Below are positions 1,432 to 51,759 of a stretch of DNA of 64,000 nt, piece after piece (the first letter of the stretch is position 1; every line of letters starts with the position of its first letter). Made by a program: the position numbers and the translations under genes. A model generated the notes under the pieces. It had not been told where the DNA came from. It did no database searches and saw nothing but the letters and a program-made list of their open reading frames with translations. This stretch comes from Dictyostelium discoideum (lineage: Eukaryota), in assembly GCA_000004695.1 (NCBI GenBank), contig CM000151.3, positions 6,720,001 through 6,784,000 of the forward strand, in the 5' to 3' direction.

Positions 1432-2282
1432 AACATAATAAAGAAGTTTCTTGAAATTTACCTAAATCGCCTAGTTTTTTTTTTTTTTTTTTTTTTTTTT
1501 CGACTGGATATCAATTATTGATAGAGAATCTATGGTTCATTCAAGTATGGAAATACAATTTCAAATAATCAATTCACCTATTATCCATCTGAAATTAATG
1601 GCTTAAAACCTTAAACAGATTATGTTCAATTTAATTGTGAAAATATTGATTCACCAAATAAAGCAGCCACTACAACTATATCAATTTCCTTTTTCTTTTC
1701 TATTTATTAATAATATAATTGTTTCGTTTTCTTATATTTTAATTTTCATTTAATAAAATATTATTATTTTAATTTAATTTTTCACTTTTTTTTTTTGAGT
1801 GTCCAATTATTTTTTTTATTTTTTTTATTTAAATAATTCAATAGTAAATGGTAATTTATATAATTTACTATTTAATTATTTAATTTATAAAAAAAAAATA
1901 ATAAGAATCTGGATTCAAAGTAGAATTTTTTTCATTTCCGAGCCAGTAATCATTTTTTTTTTTTTTTTTTTGCGATTTCCTGGGAAATAAGGAAAAAAAA
2001 AATAATAAAAATAAGTGTCTTGGTGAAGTTTTTCTTTAGGAATTGGGAAAAATGAGAATTGGAAAAAAAAAAAAAAAGAAAAAAAAAAAAAAATAAAAAC
2101 TAAATAAATAAATATTTTTCTCATTTGACATTGAAAGAAAAGTTTAGAAAAATGAAACATATATTATTTTTAGTTTTATTGGTTTTAAGTTTTACAGAAA
2201 AATGCCTGTAAATATGATTTATTATTTTTTACAATTTTATTTTTATTTTTATTTCTAATCACCATAATTTTTTAAATCTTAG

Positions 2283-2768
2283 TCTTTTAACATTTATTTT
2301 TATTGTGGATATCAATATAATATAACCATTGAAACAAATAACCCTCCAATTACCCAAATATCAGGACATACCAATTTTAATATAATTGTTCCAATGACAT
2401 TTAATTCTACACACTATAGTATGGAGCTTTCATCATATTTTACAAGTTATCAAAGTTCATTCAATGTAATGGTAAGTTTTAATAGATTCGAAAGTACAGC
2501 TCAACATGTTTTTACAATTATGCCTCCAAATTTCGAAGGTGTCAAATCAATCAGTAACGATTTAACTCAATTTGAAATAATAGGAAATGGACTTAAACAT
2601 AACAATTTTTACAATTTTTTAAAAGATATTCGATGTGACCAAGATATGAGTTTTGATCCAAGTAAGGAACGTTTTGTGTGCTATTCAGCTTTTTCAAATA
2701 GTTGTTTTAGTTTTGGATATTCCAATAAATTTTTTAATTTAACTAACCAATATTTTTTTTTCTGCTGG
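2283..2768 (+). CDS. Putative internal exon of an uncharacterized, possibly secreted, protein. An upstream signal-peptide-like exon at 2152..2208 (MKHILFLVLLVLSFTEKC) may belong to it, but the splice phases do not reconcile
   Basis: Open frame from the AG acceptor at 2281-2282 to a GTATGT donor at about 2769; Cys/Asn-rich; no recognisable family. Confidence 0.2.
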
Positions 2769-4083
2769 TATGTATGCATTAAAAGTATTTTAATTAAAAT
2801 AAAAATAATTTTTTCTTTATTTGATTAACAATTTTAAAAATATTAGTACCCACTATAAATTCAATTGAAAGAATAGGTTCATTTTTACTTATTGATGCAG
2901 AATTCCATTGTCAAAACTATGTGGATAGTATTAGAAAAGGTATTTCCATAGGAGCAAGAATTATATGGTTCACTCGAGAATGCAAATAGAAATTCAAAAA
3001 CACAATACACATTTGATCCAGAATCATATGATTTCTCTATGTGCTTAGAGAATGATAATTACAACATCTCTTTGATTTCTGATATTAAATCTCAAACAAA
3101 TTATTCAAGCCATGTTATATTGTGAAAAAGGTTATAGTAATGAACTTAGTAACAAAGATATCTACAATTTCCTTATTCTCTTTTATATTTATTTTATTAA
3201 TATAAAAACCTCAATAATGTAATAAATAAAATATTTTTAATAAAATTTAATATACATATATCTTTTTTTTTATTATTTTATTTTGATTTTAAGGTGTTTT
3301 TTTTTTTTTTTTTTTAAAATATAATAAACATTAATAATTTTCAACAAAGGTTGAAATTTCCACAATAGAATAAACATTAATAATTAAAATAGATTATTTT
3401 AATGTTATGTTTTAGCTGATCTTACAATTTCTCCACGAATACAAGTAGTTCAAATCGCAAAAGACTAATAGATTTTAATCTGTTTAATTTTTTTTAAAAG
3501 GGTAAAAAAAAGATTGTTAATTTAAAAAAGATTTGTCTCTGTTCCCCTTAATATTATGAATGATCTTTTTTTGTAGCACCATAATGATTTTTTTTTATTA
3601 TTTATTAATCAAAATGTTTATCCATTAAAGTAAATAAACAGTAATTAATAAGTTAATTTATGAATTTTTAATTTTTTTGAAATAAAATTATTTTGATTTA
3701 GATTTAAATACAGATATTTTATTATAGATCATCTAATCAGAATTTTGATTTTTTAAAAAATATGTTGTTCCTATTATTGCTGTTAATGTTTTTTTTACAG
3801 AGTTAATTCTAAATTTTTTGCTTTTTTAATATATTCTAGAGTGGCTAGTTTGTACCATTAGTTGAGAAGGGTTGGGAATGATAGCTTTTCACCTGTAGAT
3901 GGTTTGTCGTTATATAATTCCAGAAATACATTATTCGTGAACATAAGGAACAAAATCAAACAGCTCAGAATATCTGGATGATTAACCAATTGACGCACGC
4001 ATAAGGAACAAAATCAATAATGGTACGAAATTCACAAACAAGATGCAAAAACTCCAATGACAGGAAAGTTCTAATTTTGAAAG

Positions 4084-4095
4084 GGATTCGAACCA
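4084..4095 (-). promoter_or_regulatory. External B-box-like Pol III element (GGTTCGAATCCC on the minus strand) about 35 bp downstream of tRNA-Arg
   Basis: Exact match to the B-box consensus GGTTCGAATCC lying outside the tRNA. Dictyostelium tRNA genes commonly carry an ex-B box 20-40 bp downstream. Confidence 0.35.
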
Positions 4096-4129
4096 GTGAT
4101 TTTATTTCGGGTTTGGTTGAAAAATTATA

Positions 4130-4203
4130 CGAGACCATCAGGGGTCGAACCTGAGACCTACCGGTTCGTAGCCGGTCGTTATATCCAACTAAACTATAGT
4201 CCC
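4130..4203 (-). tRNA. tRNA-Arg (anticodon ACG)
   Basis: Reverse complement reads GGGACTATAGTTTAGTTGGATATAACGACCGGCTACGAACCGGTAGGTCTCAGGTTCGACCCCTGATGGTCTC. Acceptor stem GGGACTA/TGGTCTC has 2 G-U pairs. Anticodon stem ACCGG/CCGGT with loop CTACGAA (U33, ACG, A37). T-arm TCAGG-TTCGACC-CCTGA. A T5 run follows on the minus strand. Confidence 0.55.
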
Positions 4204-4903
4204 TTTGATATTTTTATTATTTAAATGCCAAAATAATTCTGTTAATTCTATTATCTATTATTTCCTTATTTTAGTGACTAAATTTATTACATTTAAATTA
4301 ATTATAAAAAATCTTATATCATTTTTATTTGTCTTGACCAGTTGCATGTCAGTCAGTACAAGAGCAAAACCTCAACAAAAAAATATTTCTCAAAAAATTT
4401 AAAAAAAATCACACTAGTAAAAGTTGTATTAAAAATTAAGGCTCATGGAATTAAAAACTCTATATCATATGAGAAAAAGCATCCCTATGGAGAAGTAACT
4501 TAAAATTTCTTTATTCAATTCAAAAAAAAAATCAAACTCTTCATTTAAATAATTTATATCAACTTTTAATAATAGAAGCAAAAAAAAGATTAATTCTTAA
4601 AATGATAACCTCTTTAATTTTAAGTTTTCTTGTGTCAAACCTTATTAATAATTTTCTTAAAATTAACCATATCAAATTTCCCTAAAAAAATAAAAATAGA
4701 ATTCTATTTTGGGAAGTGTGGTAAAAAAAAAAAAAAAAAAAAAAATTTAATAAAATCGGGTGTTTGGATAAAAAAAACAAAAAATCCAACAAAAATAAAA
4801 ATTATATAAATATTTATATTATTTTTAAAAATATAAATCATATAACAATTTCTCCCAACATTTAAATTATTACTCTAAAACTATTATTTTTTTTTTTAAT
4901 AAA

Positions 4904-8928: not shown

Positions 8929-11900
8929 ATTTTAGGTATGGTTGGTTATAATGAATCAATTTCAGATCCATCATATACTGGACAAATTTTAGTATTCTCA
9001 TTTCCATTGATTGGTAATTATGGTGTACCATCATTTAGAGAAAGAGATCCAGAATCAGGATTAGCAGTAAACTTTGAATCAGATAAAGCACATGTTCAAG
9101 CAATTATTTGTTCAGAGTATTGTGATGAATATTCACATTGGGCAGCAGAGAAATCACTTTCAGAGTGGTTAAAAGAATCAAACATTCCAGGTTTGTACGG
9201 AATCGATACACGTGCTTTGATCACCAAAATTCGTGAGAAGGGCTCTCTAAAAGGAAAGGTAATCATTGGTGACTTTGATGAAAGTAAATTGGAGTTTGAA
9301 GATATTAATTTACGTAATTTGGTTGCAGAAGTTTCAACCAAAGAGATTAAAGAATACAAAGCTGCAGAGAACAATAAGAAAACTGGCGAAAAAAGAAAGA
9401 ATAAAAAAGTGATCGTACTTGATTGTGGTATTAAAAATAATCAAATCCGTTGTTTATTAAATCGTGGTGTAGATCTTAAAGTTGTACCATGGGACTACGA
9501 TGTGGTTGCAAACGAATCAATCAATGATTACGATGGTGTTTTCATTAGTAATGGTCCAGGTGATCCAAGTCTTTGTGGAAAAGCAATTGAAAACATTAGA
9601 AAAGTATTGGCATTGCCAGTTGCCAAAGCAGTATTTGGTGTTTGTATGGGTAATCAATTGTTAGGTTTAGCCGCTGGTGCACAAACTCATAAAATGGCCT
9701 TTGGTAATCGTGGTCTCAATCAACCATGTGTCGATCAAATTAGTGGCCGTTGTCATATCACCTCACAAAATCATGGCTTTGTTATCGATTCAAATTCTTT
9801 ACCAGCTGGTAGTGGTTGGAAAACTTACTTTATAAATGCAAATGATGCCTCCAACGAAGGTATCTATCATGAGAGTAAACCATGGTTCTCTGTTCAATTC
9901 CATCCAGAAGCTATGGCAGGTCCAACCGATACTGAATATCTTTTCGATAATTTCGTTGATAACGTTTGTGGTGAACAACAACATAAATCACCAATGAATA
10001 AATCTAAAATCATCGATTGTCCAAAAGGTATCAATAAAGTTTTAATTTTAGGTTCAGGTGGTCTTTCAATTGGTCAAGCTGGTGAATTTGATTATTCTGG
10101 TTCTCAAGCTATCAAAGCACTCAAAGAAGAAGGTATTAAAACCATTTTAATTAATCCAAATATCGCAACAGTTCAAACTTCACCAGGTCTTGCCGATAAA
10201 GTTTATTTCCTTCCAGTTAATGCTTCCTCTGTTCAAAAAGTAATTGAAAATGAAAATCCAGATGGTATTTTAGTAACTTTTGGTGGTCAAACAGCTTTGA
10301 ATTGTGGTATTGAACTCTATAAATCTGGTATACTCGAGAAATATAATTGTAAAGTATTGGGTACTCCAATTGAAACTATCATTGCCACTGAAGATAGAGG
10401 TATCTTTGCAGAGAAATTATCAGAAATCAATGAACGTATCGCACCATCAATGGCTTGTAATAGTTTAGAGGAATCTTTGATTGAAGCAGAGAAAATTGGT
10501 TATCCAGTCATTGTTAGAGCTGCCTATTGTTTGGGTGGTTTAGGTTCTGGTTTCGCCGATAATAAAGAACAACTCACAGCATTGGTCACTGAAGCAATGG
10601 CAACCTCTTCACAAGTTTTGGTTGAAAAATCACTCAAAGGTTGGAAAGAAATTGAATATGAAGTTTTAAGAGATAGTAAAGACAATTGTATCACCGTTTG
10701 TAATATGGAAAATTTCGATCCACTCGGTATTCATACTGGTGAATCAATCGTCGTTGCACCATCACAAACACTTTCAGATAGAGAATATCAAATGTTAAGA
10801 GAAACTGCAATTAAAACCGTTCGTCATCTTGGTGTAATTGGTGAATGTAATATTCAATATTCCCTCAATCCATATAGCGAAGAATATTGTATCATTGAAG
10901 TTAATGCACGTCTTTCACGTAGTTCAGCATTGGCAAGTAAAGCAACCGGTTATCCACTTGCTTTCATCTCTGCCAAAGTTGCTTTGGGTTATGATTTAGC
11001 AGCATTAAGAAATACAATCACAAAGAAAACTACAGCATGTTTCGAACCTTCATTGGATTATTTAGTTGTTAAAATGCCACGTTGGGATTTAAAGAAATTC
11101 ACTCGTGTTTCCAATAAAATTTCATCATCAATGAAATCAGTTGGTGAAGTTATGTCAATTGGTAGAAAATTTGAAGAAGCAATTCAAAAAGCAATTAGAA
11201 TGGTTATGGATGGTGCAGTTGAAGGTTTCCAAGCTGGTGTTTTCCCAACCTCTGATGAAGAACTTGAACATCCAACTAATAATCGTATTTTAGTATTGGC
11301 AAGTGCTTTCAAAGATGGTTATTCCATTGATAGAGTACATCAATTAACAAAGATTGATAAATGGTTCTTAACAAAACTTAAAGCAATCATCGATTTAGAG
11401 AATCATTTATCAACCTATAAAGAACCATCACAAATTCCATCAGAGATTTTGAAATTCTCAAAACAACAAGGTTTCTCTGATAAACAAATCGCCAGAGCAG
11501 TTGGTACCACAGAATTGAATGTTAGAGATTATAGAAAGAAAATGGGTATCATTCCATGTACAAAACATATCGATACAGTTGCTGCAGAATTCCCAGCTCA
11601 AAACAATTATCTTTACATGACTTACAATGGTGAAACCAATGATGTAAATATCAATGAAAAATCTTATATCACATTAGGTTCAGGTTCATATCGTATTGGT
11701 AGTAGTGTTGAGTTTGATTGGTGCGCAGTTAGTTGTATTCGTACATTACGTAGTTTAGGTTTGAAATCAATTATGATCAATTTCAATCCAGAGACTGTTA
11801 GTACTGATTATGATGAATGCGATTATCTCTACTTTGAAGAACTCTCATTGGAAAGAGTATTGGATATCTATGAACGTGGTGGTCCAAATTCAAATCATGG

Positions 11901-14900
11901 TGTAATATTATCAGTTGGTGGTCAAATTCCAAACAATTTAGCCATTCCATTATCACGTTGTAATGTTAAAGTTTTAGGTACTCATCCAGATATGATTGAT
12001 TCAGCTGAAAATCGTTATAAGTTCTCACGTCTTTTAGATACCATTGGAATTGATCAACCACTTTGGAAAGAATTAACAAGTGTTTCCGATACAAAAGATT
12101 TCTGTGAATCTGTTGGTTTCCCATGTTTAGTTCGTCCATCTTATGTACTCTCTGGTGCTGCTATGAATGTAGTTCACTCTTCACAAGATCTCGAAACATT
12201 CCTTACTGAAGCTGCTGCAGTTTCACGTGATCATCCAGTTGTCATTTCAAAATTCATTCAAGAAGCTAAAGAGATTGAAATTGATGCTGTCGCCGATAAT
12301 GGTCGTATTGTTTTATTCGCAATTAGTGAACATGTTGAAAATGCCGGTGTACACAGTGGTGATGCTACCATTGTTTGTCCAGCTCAAGATCTTGATGATG
12401 CCACCATCCTCAAGGTTGAAGAAACCGCTAGAAAGATCGCTGAAGCACTCAATGTCAGTGGTCCATTCAATATTCAATTCATTGCTAAAAACAATGAAAT
12501 CAAAGTTATCGAATGTAATTTACGTTGTTCACGTTCTTTCCCATTCGTTAGTAAAACATTAAATATCAATTTTATCGAATTAGCAACTAAAATCATCATT
12601 AAACATCAATATGATCTTCCAGTTGTAAATCCAATCAATTATGTTGGTGTCAAAGTACCACAATTCTCATTCATTCGTCTTAAAGGTGCAGATCCAGTTT
12701 TAGGTGTAGAAATGGCATCCACTGGTGAGGTAGCATGTTTTGGTAATACTCGTGAAGAAGCTTACGTCAAGGGTTTAATTTCTACTGGTTTCAAAGCACC
12801 AGAAAAAAATGTACTCCTTTCAATTGGTTCATTCAAAGAGAAACATGAATTCCTTCCATCAGCTCATAAATTAATTAAATTAGGTTATACCTTATTTGGT
12901 ACTCAAGGCACTGCCGATTTCTACAGTGAAAATGGTGTTCCAGTAACTCAACTCAATTGGGATGAAGAGGATTTAGGTGAAAATGTAATTCAAAAGAAAA
13001 TGACTGAAAATACAATTCATCTCTTCATTAATTTACCATCAAAGAATAAATATCGTCGTCCATCTTCATTCATGTCAAGAGGTTATTCATTACGTCGTGT
13101 TGCTATCGATTTCCAAGTACCACTCATTACCAACATCAAATGTGCTAAATTATTCGTCGATTCTTTATCCTACATGAAAGGTCCAATGCCAATTGAAAAT
13201 GTTGATTGGAGAACAAGTAATAAGATCATTCGTTTACCAGGTTTAGTTGATGTTCATGTTCATCTTAGAGAACCAGGTGCCACTCATAAAGAAGATTGGG
13301 ACAGTGGTACAGCAACTGCATTAGCTGGTGGTTTCACCATGGTTGGTGCTATGCCAAACACTAATCCAGCCATTATGGATGATGCATCATTTGAACTTTG
13401 TAAATCATTGGCAGCCTCAAAAGCACGTTGTGATTATGGTATTTTCATTGGTGCCACTTTTACCAATACAACAACCGCTGGTAAATTCGCATCCGATGCC
13501 ATGGGTATGAAAATGTATCTCGAAGAAACCTTTGCTCCACTTCCATTAAAAGATGATATCAACGTTTGGAGAGATCATATTATGAATTGGCCAGGTACAA
13601 CACCAATTTGTGTTCATGCTGATGGTAGAAATCTTGCAGCAATTCTCTTATTAGGTTGGATGTATGATAAACATATGCATGTTTGCCACGTTTCACATAA
13701 AGAAGAGATTGATATTATTCGTGATGCAAAGAAACGTGGTATGAAATTATCATGTGAAGTTTCACCACATCATTTAACCCTTTGTGATAAAGATATTCCA
13801 CGTATTGGTGCTGGTCAATCTGAAGTTCGTCCAAAACTTGGAACTGAAGAAGATTTGAATGCACTCTGGGACAATATCGATTACATTGATATGATTGCAA
13901 CCGATCATGCTCCACACACTTGGGAAGAGAAATGTAGCGCCAAACCACCACCAGGTTTCCCAGGTCTTGAAACTTCATTACCATTGATGTTAACTGCCGT
14001 CCATAATGGTAGAATCACCATTGAAGATTTGGTAATGAAAATGCACACAAATCCAATTCGTATTTTCAATCTTCCAGAACAACCAGATACTTACATTGAA
14101 GTTGATATGGAACAAGAATGGACCATTCCAAAGAAACCACTCTATTCAAGATGTGGTTGGACTCCATTCGAAGGTCTTCAAGTACGTGGTAAAGTTGTTA
14201 AAGTCGTACTTCGTGGTCAAATCGCTTTCATTGATGGTAAAATCATTGCACAAAAAGGTTTTGGTTTAAATTTACGTTCAAAAGAATATCAAGTTGAAAA
14301 AGAAAGATTACTCAATACTACCAAACCAATTTATGATAAAATCCCAACTGTTCAATCAACAAAGAATCAAACTACAAATATTACTTCACCATCATTAATT
14401 AGTGATTCACCAAATAAAGCCATCAATAAGATTAAATCTACTTCCACTTCTACAACTCCAAATACTCAAGAACAATCAACACAACATTTACCATTAGTTG
14501 GATCAAATCTTGCATCAGCTGTATTAAATAAAAAAGAAGATACACTCCAAACTGCTTTCAATATCTCAGATAATTCATTGGCAGGTAAACATATTTTCTC
14601 AGTTAAACAATTCAATAGAAAACAATTACATGCCTTATTTGGTATTGCTCATGAAATGAGAATTTTAGTTAAGAGATCAGGTGGTTCAGATTTATTGAAG
14701 GGTAAAGTTTTAGCTACTCTCTTCTATGAACCAAGTACTCGTACTCAATGTTCATTCACTGCTGCCATGCAAAGATTAGGTGGTTCAGTTGTCACTGTTG
14801 ATAATGTATCATCATCAGTTGCCAAAGGTGAATCAATCGCTGATACCATTCAAACTTTAGAATCCTATTGTGATGCAGTTTGTATGAGACATCCAGCTGT

Positions 14901-15498
14901 TGGTTCAGTTGAAAGTGCAATTCAAGTCGCCAAAAAACCAATCATTAACGCAGGTGATGGTGTTGGTGAACATCCAACTCAAGCTTTATTGGATGTTTTC
15001 ACAATTCGTGAAGAATTAGGTACCGTCAATGGTTTAACTATCACCGTTGTTGGTGATCTTAAACATGGCCGTACCGTTCATTCTTTGGTTCGTCTCTTAG
15101 CAAACTATCAAGTTAAAATCAATTATGTCTCACCATCTTCACTCTCAATGCCAACTGAAATCATCAAAGAACTCAATGAAAAAGGTATTGAACAAAAAGA
15201 ATATACAAATATCGAATCTATCCTTCCAACTACCAATGTACTATATGTAACTAGAGTTCAAAAAGAACGTTTCCAAAGTATTGAAGAATATGAAAAAGTT
15301 AAAGATTCTTTCATTATCACTCCACATACTCTCACTAAAGCTTCTGATAATATGATCGTTATGCATCCACTTCCAAGAATTAATGAAATTAGTCCAGAAG
15401 TTGATTCTGATCCACGTGCTGCTTACTTTAGACAAATGGAAAATGGTTTATATGTCCGTATGTCACTTTTAGCTCTTGTATTTGGTGCTGGTGTTTAA
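8694..15498 (+). CDS. pyr1-3: CAD multifunctional pyrimidine biosynthesis protein (GATase-CPSase large subunit-dihydroorotase-aspartate transcarbamoylase); 2 exons (8694..8808, 8936..15498), 2225 aa
   Basis: Exon 1 '[30 protein letters not shown]' joins '[20 protein letters not shown]' via a phase-1 GTAAGT intron, collinear with the CAD N-terminus. DHOase motif [15 protein letters not shown]; ATCase [13 protein letters not shown] near the C-terminus. The computed length equals that known for Dictyostelium PYR1-3. Confidence 0.9.
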
Positions 15499-28877: not shown

Positions 28878-39543
<10,666 letters not shown>

Positions 39544-40042
39544 ATGAAATAAAATTAAAATTAAATAAATTTTCTATTATAAAAAAAAAATATATTTTTA
39601 ATGTTTTAACAAATTTTTTCAATTTTATAAAATCACAATCTTTAAATGGACTAAAACCTTTTCAATTATGTTGTTGGGAGCTCATATCACTATTATTTTT
39701 TATTTGATTATTTTTTCAAAAGAATTTTATAATTGTTATAAATAATTTATATTTATAAAAGTCTCTTTATTAAAAATTATTTTTATTATTTTAAATATAT
39801 TAATATATTACTATTATTTAAAATAGGTTAATATTTTACCTAAATAATTATTATTTTTATTATTTTAATCCAGATTTATTTTAAGTTTTTCTGAATGTTA
39901 TGAGAAGTGGTAAAAAGAAAAAAAAATTAAATTTTGTTATTTTAATCATAAGAGATTTTTGGAAAAAAAAAAAAAAACAATGTCCTATTTTTAGTTTCTA
40001 AACACCCCTTTTTTTTTTCAACTTCACACACAATCAGTTAAT

Positions 40043-40079
<37 letters not shown>

Positions 40080-40196
40080 TAATAAAAAAAAAAATTAATT
40101 AAAAATTTTAATTATTAATTAATAATAAAAAAATAAATATATATTAATAAACAGTTTTAAAATTGTGTTTATAAATAAAATTTAAATTTTAAAAAA

Positions 40197-41306
40197 ATGA
40201 AAGTAATATTTTTATTAATATTATTAATTTTATTAAAAATTGTTAAAAGTTATGAATGTAATTGTATATTAAAAGAATATTGTAAACCATTAGAAGTTGG
40301 TGAGAGAATAGAATTTATTGGATTTTCATTTAATTCAACAGGAAATTATTTGAATTATGATTATTATTCAGTTACAACTATTGCAATTTCATATCAATCT
40401 AATTACGATATACCAGAAGAATTAGTTTGTAAATCACATGAAAATAGAGTAAGATTAGTTTGGTCTGCAATTATTTCAAATAATCAAATATCAAATGAAA
40501 CCTATAGAAATCAATTTATTGATTCCATTGTTGAGACAATTCAAAAGGAAAATATGGATGGAGTAATATATGAATTAGATAATCCAAATGATTTAACCAT
40601 TGAAAATAGTGATTACTTTACAGAAATAATTAAAAAAACATATCAAAAATTGAAATTGATCAATTGGAATTATCAAATTTCTGCAAAATTTCCATTTTCA
40701 CCAAATATTGATTTTTCGTATAATTACCCTGAAATTTCATATTACAGTGATTATTTAGTTATAATGGATTATAATATTGGTAGTAGAGTTTCAAATGATG
40801 GTAACTATTGTTTAGCAGGCTCAAATTCACCAAATCCTTTGATTGAGCAAGGTGTTCACAATTTCACATCAATGGGTATTCCTGGTGAAAGATTGGTTTT
40901 AACATATCCATGGTTTGGTTTAGATTTTATTTGTTTCAATGGTAATTTATCAAGTGTAGATTGTTTAGTTACTAAAAGTGAAAATGTTAGTTGTAATGAT
41001 ATCAATTCAATTTCAAATCAAATAAGTTATGGTGAAATATTAAAGATTCTAAATGATGATAACATTATAAATGGTGGAATAAATTGGAATTCTCAAAGTA
41101 AATCAGTATTTTTCAATTATTATGATAAACAAGGTATCCTTCACCAAATTCATTTTGATAATCCAAAATCACTCTTTATAAAAGTATTTTTAACAAAAAG
41201 ATTAAAAGCAAAAGGTATTGCTGCTCAAAGCATGGATAATTTGGATTTTAATGATTTAGTAAATTCATATAATATGTTTGATACAATGGCTTATTTTTTC
41301 ATGTAA
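40197..41306 (+). CDS. Secreted glycoside-hydrolase-family-18-like (chitinase-like / CHID1-like) protein, 369 aa
   Basis: N-terminal signal peptide MKVIFLLILLILLKIVKS. 'MDGVIYELDNP' resembles the GH18 / CHID1 catalytic-region motif (DG[FI]..E). Single ORF. The family assignment is tentative. Confidence 0.4.
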   Translation: MKVIFLLILLILLKIVKSYECNCILKEYCKPLEVGERIEFIGFSFNSTGNYLNYDYYSVTTIAISYQSNYDIPEELVCKSHENRVRLVWSAIISNNQISNETYRNQFIDSIVETIQKENMDGVIYELDNPNDLTIENSDYFTEIIKKTYQKLKLINWNYQISAKFPFSPNIDFSYNYPEISYYSDYLVIMDYNIGSRVSNDGNYCLAGSNSPNPLIEQGVHNFTSMGIPGERLVLTYPWFGLDFICFNGNLSSVDCLVTKSENVSCNDINSISNQISYGEILKILNDDNIINGGINWNSQSKSVFFNYYDKQGILHQIHFDNPKSLFIKVFLTKRLKAKGIAAQSMDNLDFNDLVNSYNMFDTMAYFFM

Positions 41307-41549
41307 AATTTAATAAAATAAAATTAAAATTTTTTTTTTTTTTTTTTCCACATAATATATCGTTGAATAATACATTTAATTGATTATCAATTAAATTTAC
41401 AATTTAATTTATAATGGAATAAAATTTTAATTTTAATTTAATTTTTCCTGATAATTTCTATTTTTTTTTTTTTTTTTTTTTTTCAGACCCACTCTTTTTC
41501 TGAATCATTTTTTTTTTTTTTTCCATCTATACTATTTTTCAAATCAAAA

Positions 41550-42644
41550 ATGGAATTAAAATCATTTACATTTAAAGTTTCAAATGTTAAAAAATCAAAT
41601 ATTGAAATAAAAGATTTAGATATATTTGATATAGTTAATCCAAAAGAAAATGAATTTATTCCACTTGCAGAAAGAAAACAAACACTTAGCTTTAATGATA
41701 AACCTCAAGAAAAAAGGATTGTAAAATCATCATTTACAAAACAATCTAAATATATTGGAATTAATTCATTTATAGTATCTGCAATAAAAGCATATTCACA
41801 TCATCATCACTTAGTGATAAGAGTTGATGATATATGGATGGCAATATTAAATCAATTTTCAATTTATGTTAATTCAAATGCAGAGATATTAAGAGAAAAG
41901 TTTGTTGATTTCAATGGAAAGAAAACATTGACAGTGACTAGTAATGTTCCAATTTTAAGTGCACCCCTTGATCAATTAACAATTCAAATGGCTGAAAATA
42001 TAAAATCAAATATTATTGATCCATCCATTAGAGATTTGATTATTGGTGATTTTAGTACAACTACAGAAAATGATCGAGTTGTATATTCTGCATCATTAAT
42101 GTCAACTTTTAAAAGTTATTTTGATTATAGGTATATGACATTTTGTGGTTTACCAAGTGTTACATTGCAAGGATCAACTGAAGATTGGTTAAATTTAAAA
42201 CAAAGAATTGAAAGATTAATTGATTTTGAAATTGATAGTAGTAGTAAGACAGGTGAAATGAAAGAATGGGTTAGTATGTTACATCCAATAATAGATCAAT
42301 TCATTTCCACTTCAATGGGTAAACCAAATATTGAATGGTGGAATCAGATCGCTGATAAAAAACAATCATCTGGTAGTGTAAATTTAACTGGTTGGATCAC
42401 TGTATTTTGTGTATATGATAAAAATGGTAAATGGATTGGTAAAAAAGACACAACAAATTCACAATGGTTAAGAATAAACTTTGATTCCATCCCATTAGGT
42501 TATCTATCAACTCCAATAACTTTAATAGATTTTGATAGACAAGAATATAAATGTGATCTATTATCTGGTCATATGGCAATTAATATTGATTTAAATGATC
42601 AAACAATTTTAAAACCATCATTAGATTGGGTAATTATTAATTAA
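41550..42644 (+). CDS. Hypothetical protein, 364 aa (no confidently recognised domain)
   Basis: Single uninterrupted ORF with normal Dictyostelium composition, flanked by A/T-rich spacers. Confidence 0.4.
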   Translation: MELKSFTFKVSNVKKSNIEIKDLDIFDIVNPKENEFIPLAERKQTLSFNDKPQEKRIVKSSFTKQSKYIGINSFIVSAIKAYSHHHHLVIRVDDIWMAILNQFSIYVNSNAEILREKFVDFNGKKTLTVTSNVPILSAPLDQLTIQMAENIKSNIIDPSIRDLIIGDFSTTTENDRVVYSASLMSTFKSYFDYRYMTFCGLPSVTLQGSTEDWLNLKQRIERLIDFEIDSSSKTGEMKEWVSMLHPIIDQFISTSMGKPNIEWWNQIADKKQSSGSVNLTGWITVFCVYDKNGKWIGKKDTTNSQWLRINFDSIPLGYLSTPITLIDFDRQEYKCDLLSGHMAINIDLNDQTILKPSLDWVIIN

Positions 42645-43232
42645 AAAAAATAAAATAAAATAAAATAAAAATTAAAATAAGTGTTCTTCCACACATTTCT
42701 GCATATTTTTCCATTTAAAAGTTTTTTTTTTTTTTTTTGATACCACAAAAATTGCAAATAAAAAAAAATATTTGGATTTAATCAGCAGTGCACTAAAAAT
42801 AAAACAAATCAAGCAGTTGGGATCCAAAAAAAAAAAAAAAAAAAAAAAAAATTTTTATTTTATTTTTTTTGATTTTTTTTTTTTTTTTCAATTTATTTTT
42901 AAATTTAATATCCTGGCCATATAAAGTTTTTTTTTTTTTTTTTTTCATTCACACACAAACCTTTTTTTTTTTTTTTTTTTTGTTTTTTCAATTATTAAAT
43001 TTATTTATTATAATAATAAAAATAAAATAAATAAAATAAAAAAAGATATATTAAAATTTCATATTTTTTTTTTTATTTTAATTTTTTAAAAAAAAAAAAA
43101 TTTATTCGGTACCACAAACAAAAAAAAAATAAAAATAAAAATAAAAATAACAAAGATAAACACCCACACACACACACAACACACTTTTATAAACATATAG
43201 ATAATTATTGAATTCAATAGTATAAATAAAAA

Positions 43233-45975
<2,743 letters not shown>

Positions 45976-46971
45976 ATTTTAAATAACAATAACCAATAAA
46001 TAAAATAAAAAAAATAAAATAAAATAAAATAAAATAAAATAAAATAAAAATAAATCATATCAAATAAAATAAACATTAAATCATATAAAAAAAAAATAAA
46101 AAATATATAAATAAAAAAATAAAATTAAAACTTTTAAACAAAAAAAAAAAAAAAATATTTGTAAAAATTTTTTGGATGGGAAAAAAAAAATATATAAATA
46201 ATAAAAAATGTTTATATATTTTTTTTTTCCCATCCAAAAAATATTGAAATTTTTTTTTAATTTTTTTTGTAACTCATTTTATTTTGTTTATTTTTTATTT
46301 GATGTGATTTATTTTGTTTTATTTTAATCCAAAACCTATATTAAATTATAAAAAAAAAAAATTTCCAACTTTTTTGTTCATTCACAAAAACATTCTTGAT
46401 TAAAAAATATTTTATTCTTTTTTTTTGTAAGTCTCTTAGAAAACTCCAATCGAATTTTGCTATTTTAGGGAAAGCTGAGACCATTATCAATAATCTTTTA
46501 TTGATACTTTTCAAATATTTTAAATATTGGATAGGTAATTAGTTTTCTAATATGGTTACTGCTATTCATTTTTAAAATATAACAGAAGTGGTATGCCCTA
46601 GAATGACTTGAAGAATTTATATTTTATTTATAATTTGATTTATATATTTATTTTATTTAACTTTATTAATTTAATTAATTTAATATTAATTTATTTTTTT
46701 AATTTTAATTATATATTTATAATAAAACTAACCAAAGTATCTTCTAATGAAACTAACATTTATTCTATATAAAATGAGTTGACATAATTTTCCAAAAGAG
46801 ATTAATTAAAATAATATACTAATTTGGAAAATATTTTAATTTTATATTAATTAATGAATATCTAATTTAATAATATAAATTTTCTAATAAACTATTAAAA
46901 TAGTTTAGAAATAATTATAAAAAATTATTGTAACGAACGACTACTGCTTTCGTAACAAAAATTTCCATCAA

Positions 46972-47045
46972 GCCTTAGTAGCTCAGTTGGTACGAGCGTG
47001 AGACTGAAGATCTTAAGGTCGCTGGTTCGATCCCGGCCTGAGGCA
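46972..47045 (+). tRNA. tRNA-Phe (anticodon GAA)
   Basis: GCCTTAGTAGCTCAGTTGGTACGAGCGTGAGACTGAAGATCTTAAGGTCGCTGGTTCGATCCCGGCCTGAGGCA. Acceptor GCCTTAG/CTGAGGC. Anticodon stem TGAGA/TCTTA with loop CTGAAGA. T-loop GGTTCGATCC. A T5 run follows. Confidence 0.85.
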
Positions 47046-47312
47046 ATTTTTATGATTTTCTATTAAATTTGTTGAATTGGATAGCGCCTTCCAATAAACC
47101 CTTACATCCCATCCACCCCTAAGACACCTGTCAATAAAGAAAAAAAAACCGCACCGCGATCAAGAGGATACAAGATACACGTGAAAAGTAATTCATCCTT
47201 TTCTATCCTTAATCTCGGTCAATTTTAACCAATCTTTCAAAAAAAATCACCAATCCACCACGATCTACAGATCTAACTTACCAAATCGCCGATTCAAAGG
47301 AATCCCATCGAG

Positions 47313-48566
47313 ATGAATTCCTACGCAGACGCGGCTAAAATGGCCAACCCCTCCACCCATATGGACGAGGCATCAGAGAACTTCATTAAGGAATTCTCCA
47401 CAAAAACAGCAGAGATAAAGGAGACCTACCCCAAATTATCAATAGGCCTCAAAGACATCTCCAAATACTGCGAGACCATATTGAACATGACTGCTCTCTC
47501 AACCTACGAGAAAAACAACGGATTCTACCCAATTACACTCGAATTCCCCAAAATGGATCTCATGGGGTTAGAAGAAATGAGAAAAACACTCTCAAACTAC
47601 GATATCCCAATCGACAAGATATACATAGGCAAAGGAACTAGAAAAACGATCCACCTGATGATTAAAAACGAACAATCTCTCCTAAATATCATTAGAGATA
47701 GAAGCAAATTGGGAACCTTCATCACCTCCAGTAGAGACTACCACGTCCTCACAGGAAGAGTAAGAATTCCAAGAGAAAAGGCAGGAATAGTGGACGCCCT
47801 CATCAAAACTGCCTTTGCAGAAGAAATACCCTATGCAATATACCATACTATATACTCCACCGACCACCTCCTAGTATTCGGTCTAATAGAATGCAAAATA
47901 GGCGATCAAATGAAATCTGGCCAACACAATACAGAAATCGCCAACTTTACCATCAGAACGGCCACCAAAACCTACTCCTCACAAAAGAAAAATAAGAAAG
48001 TAGAGTCAAACAACACGGAAGAACCATTAGAAGATGAGATGACAGATGATCCTCCCAACATCCAAAACAGGATAGCAATCAAATCCTCTCAACCAAAACC
48101 ACAACAACAAACATACAACCCAGCAAACAATAAGTCTGATAAACAATCAACCCAAGAGAAAAAAGCCCAATCAAAAAAGTCCTCTCAACCTCTTCCCCCC
48201 AAAAACCAAGCAGAATCTCAATCTGTCAAACCCACCACAACCACTACCACAACATCCAACGCCATCCAAAAAGACAATGCCAACAAAACGAGCACTAACA
48301 TCCATTCATCCTCGGAAAACAGAGAGAAGACACCAAACATCCCTCCATCACATAAACGCAAGAACGAGGAAATCCACTCAAACAACGAGGTCACCCAACT
48401 CTCACCAACAATAAACAGAAGCAACCCTTACATCCCATCCACCCCTAAGACACCTGTCAATAAAGAAAGGAAAGGAATCATTGAGAGCTTCATAGAGAGT
48501 ATCTACCCTTCACCATCCAAACCGCAGCTATACGACTCCCAAGAGGAGATCGATATCATCTCATAA
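47313..48566 (+). CDS. Retrotransposon ORF1 protein (417 aa, Ser/Thr/Gln-rich C-terminus)
   Basis: Single ORF immediately upstream of, and overlapping, the endonuclease-type ORF2 start. Present in two copies in the window. Confidence 0.55.
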   Translation: MNSYADAAKMANPSTHMDEASENFIKEFSTKTAEIKETYPKLSIGLKDISKYCETILNMTALSTYEKNNGFYPITLEFPKMDLMGLEEMRKTLSNYDIPIDKIYIGKGTRKTIHLMIKNEQSLLNIIRDRSKLGTFITSSRDYHVLTGRVRIPREKAGIVDALIKTAFAEEIPYAIYHTIYSTDHLLVFGLIECKIGDQMKSGQHNTEIANFTIRTATKTYSSQKKNKKVESNNTEEPLEDEMTDDPPNIQNRIAIKSSQPKPQQQTYNPANNKSDKQSTQEKKAQSKKSSQPLPPKNQAESQSVKPTTTTTTTSNAIQKDNANKTSTNIHSSSENREKTPNIPPSHKRKNEEIHSNNEVTQLSPTINRSNPYIPSTPKTPVNKERKGIIESFIESIYPSPSKPQLYDSQEEIDIIS

Positions 48567-48698
48567 TGGTAGTAATCAAAATCAACCAATGGAATGTCAG
48601 AGGTTGGGGCACTGACACCTCCTTCAAAAACAAAACAGACTTTATCAAATCCCAATCCCCCCCAAACTCATTGGCAATAACCATAGTCAATGAACTCA
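48566..48698 (+). CDS. Retrotransposon ORF2 N-terminus (endonuclease start), truncated by the N-gap
   Basis: MVVIKINQWNVRGWGTDTSFKNKTDFIKSQSPPNSLAITIVNEL, then Ns. Confidence 0.5.
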
Positions 48699-48798
48699 NN
48701 NNNNNNNNNNNNNNNNNNNNNNNNNNNNNNNNNNNNNNNNNNNNNNNNNNNNNNNNNNNNNNNNNNNNNNNNNNNNNNNNNNNNNNNNNNNNNNNNNN
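48699..48798. other. Assembly gap (100 N)
   Basis: Run of n characters. Confidence 1.
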
Positions 48799-48833
48799 CG
48801 CCAGTGTGATGGATATCTGCAGAATTCGCCCTT
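48799..48833. other. Cloning-vector contamination: pCR2.1/pCR-TOPO polylinker (CGCCAGTGTGATGGATATCTGCAGAATTCGCCCTT) abutting the gap, followed immediately by insert sequence
   Basis: The string GCCAGTGTGATGGATATCTGCAGAATTCGCCCTT (EcoRV and EcoRI sites, ending at the TOPO GCCCTT junction) is the standard TA/TOPO vector sequence flanking inserts. It is G+C-rich and unlike the host DNA. Confidence 0.85.
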
Positions 48834-50388
48834 GCTGGTAGTGCGTGGGCGTTGAGTTCATTGACTATGGTTATTGCCAATGAGTTTGGGGGGGATTGGG
48901 ATTTGATAAAGTCTGTTTTGTTTTTGAAGGAGGTGTCAGTGCCCCAACCTCTGACATTCCATTGGTTGATTTTGATTACTACCATTATGAGATGATATCG
49001 ATCTCCTCTTGGGAGTCGTATAGCTGCGGTTTGGATGGTGAAGGGTAGATACTCTCTATGAAGCTCTCAATGATTCCTTTCCTTTCTTTATTGACAGGTG
49101 TCTTAGGGGTGGATGGGATGTAAGGGTTGCTTCTGTTTATTGTTGGTGAGAGTTGGTTGACTTCATTGTTTGAGTGGATTTCCTCGTTCTTGCGTTTATG
49201 TGATGGAGGGATGTTTAGTGTCTTCTCTCTGTTTTCCGAGGATGAATGGATGTTAGTGCTCGTTTTGTTGGCATTGTCTTTTTGGATGGCGTTGGATGTT
49301 GTGGTAGTGGTTGTGGTGGGTTTGACAGATTGAGATTCTGCTGGGTTTTTGGGGGAAGAGGTAGAGATGACTTTTTTGCTTGGGCTTTTTTCTCTTGGGT
49401 TGATTGTTTATCAGACTGATTGTTTGCTGGGTTGTTTGTTTGTTGTTGTGGTTTTGGTTGAGAGGATTTGATTGCTATCCTGTTTTGGGTGTAAGGAGGA
49501 TCTGTCATCTCATCTTCTAATGGTTCCTCCGTGTTGTTTGTCTCTACTTTCTTGTTTTTCTTTTGTGAGGAGTAGGTTTTGGTGGCCGTTCTGATGGTAA
49601 AGTTTGCGATTTCTGTAATGTGTTGGCCAGATTTCATTTGATCGCCAATTTTGCATTCTATTAGACCGAATACTATGAGGTGGTCGGTGGAGTATATAGT
49701 ATTGTATATTGCATAGGGTATTTCTTCTGCAAAGGCAGTTTTGATGAGGGCGTCCACTATTCCTGCCTTTTCTCTGGGAATTCTTACTCTTCCTGTGAGG
49801 ACGTGGAAGTCTCTACTGGAGGTGATGAAGGTTCCCAATTTGCTTCTATCTCTAATGATATTTATGAGAGATTGTTCGTTTTTGATCATCAGGTGGATCG
49901 TTTTTCTAGTTCCTTTGCCTATGTATATCTTGTCGATTGGGATATCGTAGTTTGAGAGTGTTTTTCTCATTTCTTCTAACCCCTTGAGATCCATTTTGGG
50001 GAATTCGAGTGTAATTGGGTAGAATCCGTTGTTCTTCTCGTAGCAGTCATGTTCAATATGGTCTCGCAGTATTTGGAGATGTCTTTGAGGCCTATTGATA
50101 GTTTGGGGTAGGTCTCCTTTATCTCTGCTGTTTTTGTGGAGAATTCTTTAATGAAGTTCTCCGATGCCTCGTCCATATGGGTGGAGGGGTTGGCCATTTT
50201 AGCCGCGTCTGCGTAGGAATTCATCTCGATGGGATTCCTTTGAATCGGCGATTTGGTAAGTTAGATCTGTAGATCGTGGTGGATTGGTGATTTTTTTTGA
50301 AAGATTGGTTAAAATTGACCGAGATTAAGGATAGAAAAGGATGAATTACTTTTCACGTGTATCTTGTATCCTCTTGATCGCGGTACGG
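48834..50388 (-). mobile_element. Inverted second copy of the TRE-type retrotransposon 5' region (5' UTR 50388..50225, ORF1, ORF2 start); a few substitutions relative to the left copy
   Basis: Reverse complement of 47149..48698 with a handful of mismatches. Extends 18 nt further into ORF2 (..NELNAHALPA) before hitting the vector. Confidence 0.6.
49215..50224 (-). pseudogene. Second ORF1 copy, disrupted by a frameshift near 49985 (split into 82-aa and 259-aa ORFs)
   Basis: Left copy reads NMTALSTYEKNNGFYPITLEFPKMDLMGLEEM. Right copy reads NMTATRRTTDSTQLHSNSPKWISRG* and then restarts at MDLKGLEEM. This could be a sequencing error in a single-clone gap-filling read. Confidence 0.5.
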
Positions 50389-50442
50389 TTTTTGTTTTTT
50401 TTTTTTTTTTTACCTAAAAGTGGTGTAGGAGCAATTACATAG

Positions 50443-50518
50443 TTGAAAAAAGGAATTGAAAAAAGGGATTGAAAAAAGGAATTGAAAAAAGGAATTGAAA
50501 AAAGGAATTTTTTTTTTT
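50443..50518. repeat. Tandem array of a 13-bp unit (ggaattgaaaaaa), ~5 copies, adjacent to a T-run
   Basis: Direct reading. Confidence 0.8.
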
Positions 50519-50627
50519 TTTTTTTTTTACCTGTGATCAGACCTTCAAGGAATGTCCTTGTGTCTTTTCGGCGGTGTTTGTTAAACGATTTTATTTTTAT
50601 TATTCAATTGTATTAAATTTTTTAAAC

Positions 50628-50663
<36 letters not shown>

Positions 50664-50782
50664 ACTACTACTTAAATTGGAAGAGGGTTCGGAACTACTG
50701 GGGTTTGCCAGGCTTTGTTGAATTTGTATTTGTGAAGATCTTGATTGGTGTTTTTTAGTATTGCTTCGTCGTGTTTGATTTT

Positions 50783-51247
50783 CTATAGTGTGATGAATTT
50801 TTCAGTTTCGATGAGATTTAGTAATTCTGTTTCTATGACCTTTTGCTCGAATTTTGGCTCTGGTTTGCTTTCATCAGTGTTGAACAATTTTTGACAGATT
50901 ATCTTCCATAATTGGTGTGCTATTATTCCTATGAGATTGGGGAAGATTCTCTCAGTTCTGTTATATTTTGATATGTCTAAGGTATCCATTGACCATCTGT
51001 GGATTTTGATGAATGATAATTTGTTAACTGTTGATATGATGGTTTTTTCAATATCTAGGATATCTCGGCATAGAGTGAAGAGGTGAGAATAAGGGTCTCT
51101 GAATAGGTGGCCACAGATCTTGCATCTGGTGTCTCTTTCGTGGTTGATACCTGGAAGTGATCTTGAGAAGAAGGTGTTTCTACCTTTTTGGTGAGAAATG
51201 CTGTTGATGTTTATGAATACTTTGGGTATTGCTGTGTTGTATCTCAC
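50783..51247 (-). mobile_element. C-terminal fragment of a non-LTR retrotransposon ORF2 (Cys-His motif CKICGHLFRDPYSHLFTLC) with a 3' UTR and oligo(A) tail (to ~50520), bracketed by 13-bp tandem arrays
   Basis: A C-x2-C-x12-H-x4-C motif at the extreme ORF2 C-terminus is typical of non-LTR elements. The minus strand ends in a long A-run at 50540..50521. Confidence 0.5.
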
Positions 51248-51250
51248 CGA

Positions 51251-51330
51251 TTGAAAAAAGGAATTGAAAAAAGGAATTGAAAAAAGGAATTGAAAAAAGG
51301 AATTGAAAAAAGGAATTGAAAAAAGGAATT
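51251..51330. repeat. Tandem array of the 13-bp unit (ggaattgaaaaaa), ~6 copies
   Basis: Direct reading. Confidence 0.8.
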
Positions 51331-51360
51331 TTTTTTTTTTTTTTACCTAAAAGCGGTATA

Positions 51361-51540
51361 AATTGAAAAAAGGAATTGAAAAAAGGAATTGAAAAAAGGA
51401 ATTGAAAAAAGGAATTGAAAAAAGGAATTGAAAAAAGGAATTGAAAAAAGGAATTGAAAAAAGGAATTGAAAAAAGGAATTGAAAAAAGGAATTGAAAAA
51501 AGGAATTGAAAAAAGGAATTGAAAAAAGGAATTGAAAAAA
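51361..51540. repeat. Tandem array of the 13-bp unit (ggaattgaaaaaa), ~14 copies, ending 2 bp from tRNA-Pro
   Basis: Direct reading. Confidence 0.8.
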
Positions 51541-51542
51541 GT

Positions 51543-51614
51543 GGGGAGATCCGAGAATCGAACTCAGGACGCTACCACCCAAAGGTAGCATTATACCACT
51601 TAACTAATCTCCCA
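51543..51614 (-). tRNA. tRNA-Pro (anticodon UGG)
   Basis: Reverse complement reads GGGAGATTAGTTAAGTGGTATAATGCTACCTTTGGGTGGTAGCGTCCTGAGTTCGATTCTCGGATCTCCCC. Acceptor GGGAGAT/ATCTCCC. Anticodon stem CTACC/GGTAG with loop TTTGGGT (U33, UGG, G37). T-loop GTTCGATTC. Confidence 0.75.
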
Positions 51615-51685
51615 TTTTGGAATTTTTGAATTTTAATATCTAATATTATTCCTTTAATCTTTTACGATTGTGAATTATAAAAATT

Positions 51686-51759
51686 TGCCTCAGGCCGGGA
51701 TCGAACCAGCGACCTTAAGATCTTCAGTCTCACGCTCGTACCAACTGAGCTACTAAGGC
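51686..51759 (-). tRNA. tRNA-Phe (anticodon GAA), second copy, inverted relative to 46972..47045
   Basis: Exact reverse complement of the tRNA-Phe sequence at 46972..47045. Confidence 0.85.

Follow-up and report, generated by a model that had tools for sequence, protein, structure and literature searches.

Previous reports describe the TRE retrotransposons of Dictyostelium discoideum as elements with two open reading frames (ORFs), of which ORF2 carries APE (apurinic/apyrimidinic endonuclease), RT (reverse transcriptase) and zinc-finger domains in that order, and with an oligo(A) end (PMC5006619, PMC5911963). TRE3 elements have the orientation of their tRNA gene and are found ~40-150 bp downstream of it (PMC5911963), and TRE5 elements run opposite to theirs, ~50 bp upstream (PMC5911963, PMC5006619). 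Expression of TRE3-A ORF2 needs a -1 frameshift (PMC5911963), and the TRE3 consensus lengths are 5229 bp (A), 5279 bp (B), 4734 bp (C) and 1,559 bp (D, partial) (PMC5006619, Table 1). At least one TRE is carried by ~61% of D. discoideum tRNA genes, and TREs hit the same tRNA gene sequentially, which leads to tandems (PMC5006619). TRE5-A is the sole TRE with a tested targeting mechanism, involving the B box, TFIIIC/TFIIIB and binding of TFIIIB by ORF1 (PMC5006619, PMC5911963). Here we analyze a locus within a 64,000-nt window of the D. discoideum reference (GCA_000004695.1, contig CM000151.3, positions 6,720,001 to 6,784,000, forward strand), where window positions 46,972 to 51,759 span two tRNA-Phe(GAA) genes and the retrotransposon sequence between them. 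With high confidence we interpret this locus as a nest of TRE3-type, L1-like non-long terminal repeat (non-LTR) retrotransposons that arose by repeated independent insertions between convergent tRNA genes.

Both ARAGORN and Rfam bear out the initial annotation of two tRNA-Phe(GAA) genes, which are inverted relative to each other and identical at 74 of 74 nt, with a tRNA-Pro(UGG) gene between them (Table 1). The insertion space would be delimited by tRNA-Phe on the plus strand at its left, and by tRNA-Pro and tRNA-Phe on the minus strand at its right. All retrotransposon pieces at the locus are placed downstream of a tRNA gene whose strand they share. Two of them, hereafter the left and the right arm, belong to one family; others belong to a second. 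Copies of the arm family start downstream of a same-strand tRNA gene by 97 nt (Phe, window), 97 nt (Ser, locus L006), 87 nt (Phe, L008) and 49 nt (Arg, L002, where the copy is 5'-truncated by 29 nt), and a fifth copy (L007) follows another copy of this element in tandem. For the second family the corresponding distances are 81 nt (Phe, L003), 113 nt (Cys, L004) and 292 nt (Pro, window). The same-strand orientation is thus shared by seven of the seven tRNA-adjacent copies, plus both arms. Distances were judged against a TRE3 value of about 100 bp (40-150 bp), and of as much as about 230-300 bp according to a genome census. Target-site duplications measured 11 bp (L002), 13 bp (right arm), 14-15 bp (L003 and L004) and, within a repeat array described below, 13-15 bp in phase with the array.

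The left arm, GC-richer and beginning at 47143, breaks off at an assembly gap. Its complete form was recovered from the corresponding region of a newer D. discoideum assembly, GCA_054883475.1 (L001, retrieved by an exact-protein look-up), where the element occupies 9831-15062 and measures 5,232 bp without its tail. It ends in a poly(A) tail, has no LTRs and encodes an ORF2 of 1,234 amino acids in the -1 frame. Pfam identified RVT_1 in the arm-family ORF2 (E 1e-33), a Cys/His motif, CPLCKEDMSKDPYGHLFFSC (CX2C...H...C), was spotted by eye, and the ORF2 homologues beyond Dictyostelium are L1-type APE/RT proteins. Matches to the left-arm ORF1 are restricted to Dictyostelium proteins; two proteins of the newer assembly are identical to it, and 47487-48497 is matched at 100% by the AX4 model DDB_G0276397 (annotated 'partial'). 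Searches of Pfam with ORF1 and with the ORF2 fragment in the window returned no significant match, a PDB sequence search with ORF1 returned none, and an AlphaFold2 model of ORF1 residues 1-229, run without an alignment, reached a mean predicted local distance difference test score (pLDDT) of 44, too low for use. All database homologues of the element ORFs are named 'hypothetical protein'. The ORF clusters of the arm family hold 37 and 79 members, spread over all AX4 chromosomes, and the canonical 5' end of the family reads (A)6-9 CCG(C/T)ACCGCGATCAAGAGG.

Every feature of TREs in general and of TRE3 in particular that could be examined was found in these elements, and those of TRE5 were not. 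The downstream, same-strand position, the ORF and domain anatomy, the poly(A) ends and the absence of LTRs all favor the initial assignment to TRE elements, and to TRE3 rather than TRE5. The arms probably represent TRE3-A, as judged from length (5,232 vs 5,229 bp) and abundance alone.

The second family is represented in the window by a 5'-truncated copy of 722 nt plus tail. Because its ORF2 is only ~39% identical to that of the arms over the Cys/His region, we assign it to a different family; the homologues of this ORF2 fragment are all short fragments. A copy at L003 aligns to window 51249-50509 at 95.8%, straight across an A27 run at 50637-50663, and terminates in GGTCTGATCACAGGT(A)n. Since the alignment continues across it, the A27 run is internal to the 3' untranslated region (3'UTR), with the A21 at 50508-50528 as the genuine tail. 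The A27 run was rejected as the end of the fragment because two copies other than the fragment itself read through it. Consequently, of the ORF2 C-terminal fragment with oligo(A) tails that had been annotated, the fragment and the A21 tail stand, and the A27 is not a tail.

The L003 copy also overlaps, at 99.5%, an element on the plus strand of L001 that we refer to as MID, and as it matches both, the window fragment and MID are considered one family. MID encodes a 291-amino-acid ORF1, an endonuclease and an RT; in this family Exo_endo_phos scores E 1e-9 and the two ORFs overlap at TAATG. A composite assembled from two truncated copies (overlapping at 99.5%, with variable A-runs inside) measures ~4.70 kb, and this length alone, set against 4,734 bp, makes TRE3-C a somewhat favored assignment. 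At L003, positions 1635-4482 hold two tandem second-family copies within one 15-bp target-site duplication, (G)AAAAAGGTTCTTTTA. This tandem lies downstream of another tRNA-Phe(GAA) gene, and an external B-box-like sequence, GGTTCGATTCT, is present there.

The newer assembly revises the size and content of the locus. Window 37305-48698 corresponds to L001 1-11386 (99.88%) and window 48833-50189 to L001 19898-21254 (99.5%), and between them 8,511 bp in L001 replace 134 window positions of gap and vector. With these 8,511 bp hidden at the gap, the tRNA-Phe genes are therefore ~13.0 kb apart; the interval of ~4.6 kb given earlier is a gap artefact. Nor is the interval made wholly of retrotransposon, as had been proposed, since a 100-N gap, 35 nt of vector and a minisatellite of ~325 bp also lie inside it. 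The apparent inverted repeat of 4.6 kb corresponds to both outer ends of a ~13-kb cluster with the gap in its middle. In L001 the complete left element comes first, followed by A27, a spacer of 64 nt, the element's last 170 nt a second time, and A32; next come MID on the plus strand and then, on the minus strand, the right arm. The right arm has there an internal deletion of ~2.6 kb and its own poly(A) tail, past which the second copy of its target-site duplication is found (about L001 18858-18870).

The 35 nt that follow the gap are cloning-vector polylinker left behind in the assembly. The string CGCCAGTGTGATGGATATCTGCAGAATTCGCCCTT is printed exactly, abutting the insert and following ...CTCGAGCGGCCG, in a Zero Blunt TOPO clone sequence (PMC7827051), and a shorter core of it also occurs in a pCR2.1-TOPO study; a comparison with PLSDB plasmids gave no match. 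The next 23 nt (48834-48856) differ from both L001 element copies by an 8-nt deletion and 3 mismatches, and look like a primer-derived or low-quality read end. The reference thus carries 35 nt of cloning vector here, together with a gap in which ~8.5 kb are hidden, among them a full-length TRE3-A that is apparently intact.

Over about 1.55 kb the right arm differs from the left by 31 substitutions and gaps of 1, 10, 3 and 1 nt (~98% identity). As these gaps include deletions of 10 and 1 nt, the right-arm ORF1 is frameshifted, in agreement with the frameshift noted initially in one ORF1 copy. The right-arm 5' end (50393) is 1,292 nt away from tRNA-Phe(-), its distance to tRNA-Pro(-) being 1,149 nt. 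The earlier statement that an element 5' end lies within ~100 bp of each tRNA-Phe consequently holds for the left arm (97 nt) and fails for the right.

Several observations weigh against a straightforward TRE3 nest. First, the distance of ~1.1-1.3 kb at the right arm exceeds the canonical TRE3 window, as does the 292 nt between tRNA-Pro and the second-family fragment, and both need assumptions on insertion order and on the repeat array. Secondly, Exo_endo_phos in the arm-family ORF2 is weak (E 1.7e-3, below the Pfam cutoff), and MID is without its 3' 1.1 kb, which implies an unexplained deletion. Moreover, the subfamily letters were assigned by length and abundance and not by alignment to the named TRE3-A/B/C/D sequences, and the comparison with L001 reaches window position 50189, exact look-ups with neighboring ORFs having returned no gene product for the right half of the locus.

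Table 1. Features of the tRNA-associated retrotransposon locus, in window coordinates.
Feature	Position	Strand	Remarks
tRNA-Phe(GAA), left target gene	46972-47045	+	ARAGORN, Rfam 62.5 bits
Unique 51-nt flank 3' of left tRNA-Phe	47046-47096	+	
46-nt copy of internal ORF1 segment	47097-47142	+	identical to 48423-48468; runs into A-run, abuts element 5' end
Left arm, first 1,556 nt of full-length TRE3-A-type element	47143-48698	+	ends at gap
Left-arm 5'UTR	47143-47312	+	170 nt
Left-arm ORF1	47313-48566	+	intact, 417 amino acids
Left-arm ORF2 start ATG	48566	+	-1 frame, TAATG overlap with ORF1; first 44 codons inside window
Assembly gap	48699-48798		100 N
pCR-TOPO polylinker CGCCAGTGTGATGGATATCTGCAGAATTCGCCCTT, contaminant	48799-48833		35 nt; literature string match
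Right arm, 5' part of second TRE3-A-type copy	48834-50393	-	
Extra junction sequence at right-arm 5' end	50394-50427	-	TACACCACTTTTAGGT + A17 + C
Right-arm target-site duplication	50428-50440	-	13 nt, (A)TGTAATTGCTCC
Minisatellite, distal block	50441-50507	-	5 units
5'-truncated second-family copy	50508-51250	-	coding 50783-51250, ORF2 C-terminus with Cys/His motif
Minisatellite, middle block	51251-51328	-	6 units
Mini retro-insert	51329-51360	-	TATACCGCTTTTAGGT + A16; 15-bp in-phase array duplication on flanks
Minisatellite, proximal block	51361-51540	-	14 units; starts 2 nt past tRNA-Pro
tRNA-Pro(UGG)	51543-51613	-	ARAGORN + Rfam
tRNA-Phe(GAA), right copy	51686-51759	-	ARAGORN + Rfam; sequence = left copy

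Next to tRNA-Pro we find an array of a 13-bp unit, TTTTTTCAATTCC on the minus strand, with 25 unit starts in three blocks (14, 6 and 5). The simplest reading is a pre-existing minisatellite beside tRNA-Pro that was later hit by element insertions. The initial annotation had proposed a comparison of the repeat with TRE consensus sequences, and it could be hypothesized that the arrays are part of a retroelement, for instance a repetitive 3'UTR ending ...CTTTTAGGT(A)n. Two arrays are indeed followed by a short unique stretch ending ACC(A/G)CTTTTAGGT and poly(A), and the unit was not encountered again, either in the rest of the window or across ~100 kb of other loci fetched. However, the unit is likewise absent from every TRE copy examined, and the array abuts tRNA-Pro, beginning only 2 nt past it. 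The right-arm target-site duplication separates the distal block from the TACACCACTTTTAGGT(A)17 piece, so that the array and TTTTAGGT(A)17 were not contiguous before that insertion. Moreover, both internal interruptions of the array are flanked by in-phase duplications of 13-15 bp, those around the 722-nt fragment and its tail measuring 13-14 bp. We therefore hold an origin of the arrays within a retroelement to be improbable, and retain the minisatellite.

Two side observations concern the same region. Every 13-bp unit contains a T6 run, an RNA polymerase III (Pol III) terminator-like motif, and the length of the unit equals that of the target-site duplications of the inserted elements. On the minus strand, 50412-50427 and 51345-51360 are 16-nt pieces of the form TA(C/T)ACC(A/G)CTTTTAGGT, each then followed by A16-17. 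These pieces are the 3' end of a polyadenylated RNA or element, and they had no match among the TRE copies fetched.

An inverted segmental duplication of a tRNA-Phe + TRE3-A unit would also place two similar arms behind identical genes. The tRNA-Phe copies are indeed identical and have in common ~14 nt upstream and ~6 nt downstream, beyond which their flanks diverge, and the arms are 98% identical. We nevertheless consider such a duplication very unlikely, since the distances from element to tRNA gene (97 vs 1,292 nt) and the junction sequences of the arms differ, tRNA-Pro, the arrays and another element intervene on the right side only, and the 13-nt target-site duplication of the right arm includes neither tRNA gene. 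The initial annotation had itself raised the concern that the arms might be a single copy mis-assembled twice, in opposite orientation around the gap. The arms do meet at the 100-N gap, with vector and a primer-like end at the junction. However, the 31 substitutions and 4 indels between them (including the 10-nt deletion), their different 5' junctions and the presence of both in an independent assembly (left arm at 100%, right arm at 99.5%), where 8.5 kb of other sequence separate the two, exclude it for practical purposes, and we give it a negligible probability. A scarcely credible alternative is that the elements are TRE5 or another type that also clusters at D. discoideum tRNA genes (Skipper-2, DGLT-A), as no copy examined shows the upstream, antiparallel placement expected of TRE5 at ~50 bp, every one being downstream on the same strand, and neither LTRs nor integrase or RNase H were found, the only domains being APE and RVT_1, with poly(A) ends.

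The nest of TRE3-type insertions could have formed as follows. The element endonuclease would nick the DNA downstream of a tRNA gene transcribed by Pol III, at a short and constant distance, and poly(A) RNA would be reverse transcribed from the nick (target-primed reverse transcription), resulting in a target-site duplication of 11-15 bp. Target-primed reverse transcription is established for L1-type elements, and by analogy it is presumably used by the elements here. Recognition of tRNA genes through bound Pol III factors would likewise be extended to TRE3 by analogy, such recognition being experimentally shown for TRE5-A only. The left tRNA-Phe has its internal B box, GGTTCGATCCC, at 47024-47034, and no clear external B box was seen in the 51-nt flank (47046-47096) behind it. 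At least six separate insertion events are visible. They comprise a near-full-length second-family copy (probably TRE3-C) on the plus strand, a 170-nt TRE3-A tail fragment, the full-length TRE3-A on the plus strand that forms the left arm, the internally deleted TRE3-A on the minus strand that forms the right arm, the 722-nt second-family fragment on the minus strand and the 16-nt mini-insert on the minus strand.

A composite 3' end is common to two TRE3-A copies that lie 126 kb from each other (L001 15062-15321 and L002 14946-15211). It consists of poly(A) (A27 in L001), the 64-nt spacer GCCTACAGTTGATC...ACATCAACT, the repeat of the last 170 nt and poly(A) again. In L002 the whole composite lies inside one 11-bp target-site duplication, ATATGAAGATA, and in L001 AACATCAACT stands on either side of the 170-nt piece. 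These two loci suggest that the window locus was the source of a read-through (3'-transduced) transcript. In the literature covered, which was partial, we found no published description of 3' transduction for TREs.

Short A-terminated pieces directly precede full-length TRE3-A 5' ends at three sites. They derive from the element's own ORF1 (46 nt, 47097-47142), from the polyadenylated RNA or element noted above (16 nt + A17, 50394-50427), and from its own 3'UTR (38 nt + A12, L006 1280-1330). Their position suggests insertion into older A-tails or template switching by the reverse transcriptase, and the 46-nt ORF1-derived piece could be either a mini-insertion or a template-switch product. A joint reading of these observations would make the left arm a recently active master copy that carried 64 nt of its neighbor's 5' end and a second TRE3-A tail by 3' transduction to the tRNA locus 126 kb off, with preferential re-integration into A-tracts, or template switching onto them, as the origin of the short A-terminated pieces, and with the T6-containing minisatellite as a locus-specific integration platform. 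We regard this scenario as speculative, and rather doubtful as a whole.

Related sequences were also seen away from the locus. On the minus strand of the window, the C-terminus of a TRE3-A-related ORF2 survives in degenerate form at 3807-3920 (58% amino acid and 78.6% nucleotide identity to the arm family), located ~210-320 bp downstream of, and on the same strand as, tRNA-Arg(ACG) at 4130-4203. A clear external B box, GGTTCGAATCC, lies at about 4086-4096, ~35-45 bp past this tRNA-Arg gene. In another assembly labelled D. discoideum, L005 3685-10107 holds a relative whose ORF1 is 40% identical to that of the TRE3-A type; TRE ORF1 proteins are described in the literature as having no mutual similarity. 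The relative sits in a transposon cluster with no adjoining tRNA gene. With an ORF2 58% identical, it was considered as a TRE3-B candidate and as the possible origin of either the 13-bp repeat or the CTTTTAGGT tail, and was rejected, as it contains neither and has no tRNA gene beside it.

Taken together, the presented data describe a feature that is already known, a textbook case for the D. discoideum genome with nothing biologically new in it. Only the vector contamination, the possible 3' transduction and the association of 5' junctions with A-tracts are mildly new. The practical value of the locus is curatorial: it offers clean examples of target-site duplications, of internal A-runs mistaken for tails and of possible 3' transduction, and these could aid the annotation of TREs in newer long-read assemblies.

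Among the known systems, TRE3-A (formerly Tdd-3) resembles the arms in its two ORFs, its ORF2 in the -1 frame, the order APE-RT-Cys/His and the poly(A) tail. The arms differ from it by the composite 3' end and by the short A-terminated pieces at the 5' junctions, features for which no published TRE3-A description was found in the part of the literature covered. The second family shares with TRE3-C the downstream, same-strand position, target-site duplications of 14-15 bp and the TAATG overlap; it is likened to TRE3-C by length alone, with TRE3-B and TRE3-D as the alternatives. TRE5-A (DRE) has the host, the L1-like architecture and the dependence on tRNA genes in common with the elements described here, but its upstream insertion in the opposite orientation and its modular A/B/C untranslated regions do not apply to them. 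Outside Dictyostelium, the comparison is with human L1, for which 3' transduction and poly(A)-tract re-integration are known. As in L1 3' transduction, the L002 composite appears to have been mobilized as a whole, with a single target-site duplication around it, and, as in L1 poly(A)-tract re-integration, new copies at this locus sit directly behind the A-tracts of older fragments.

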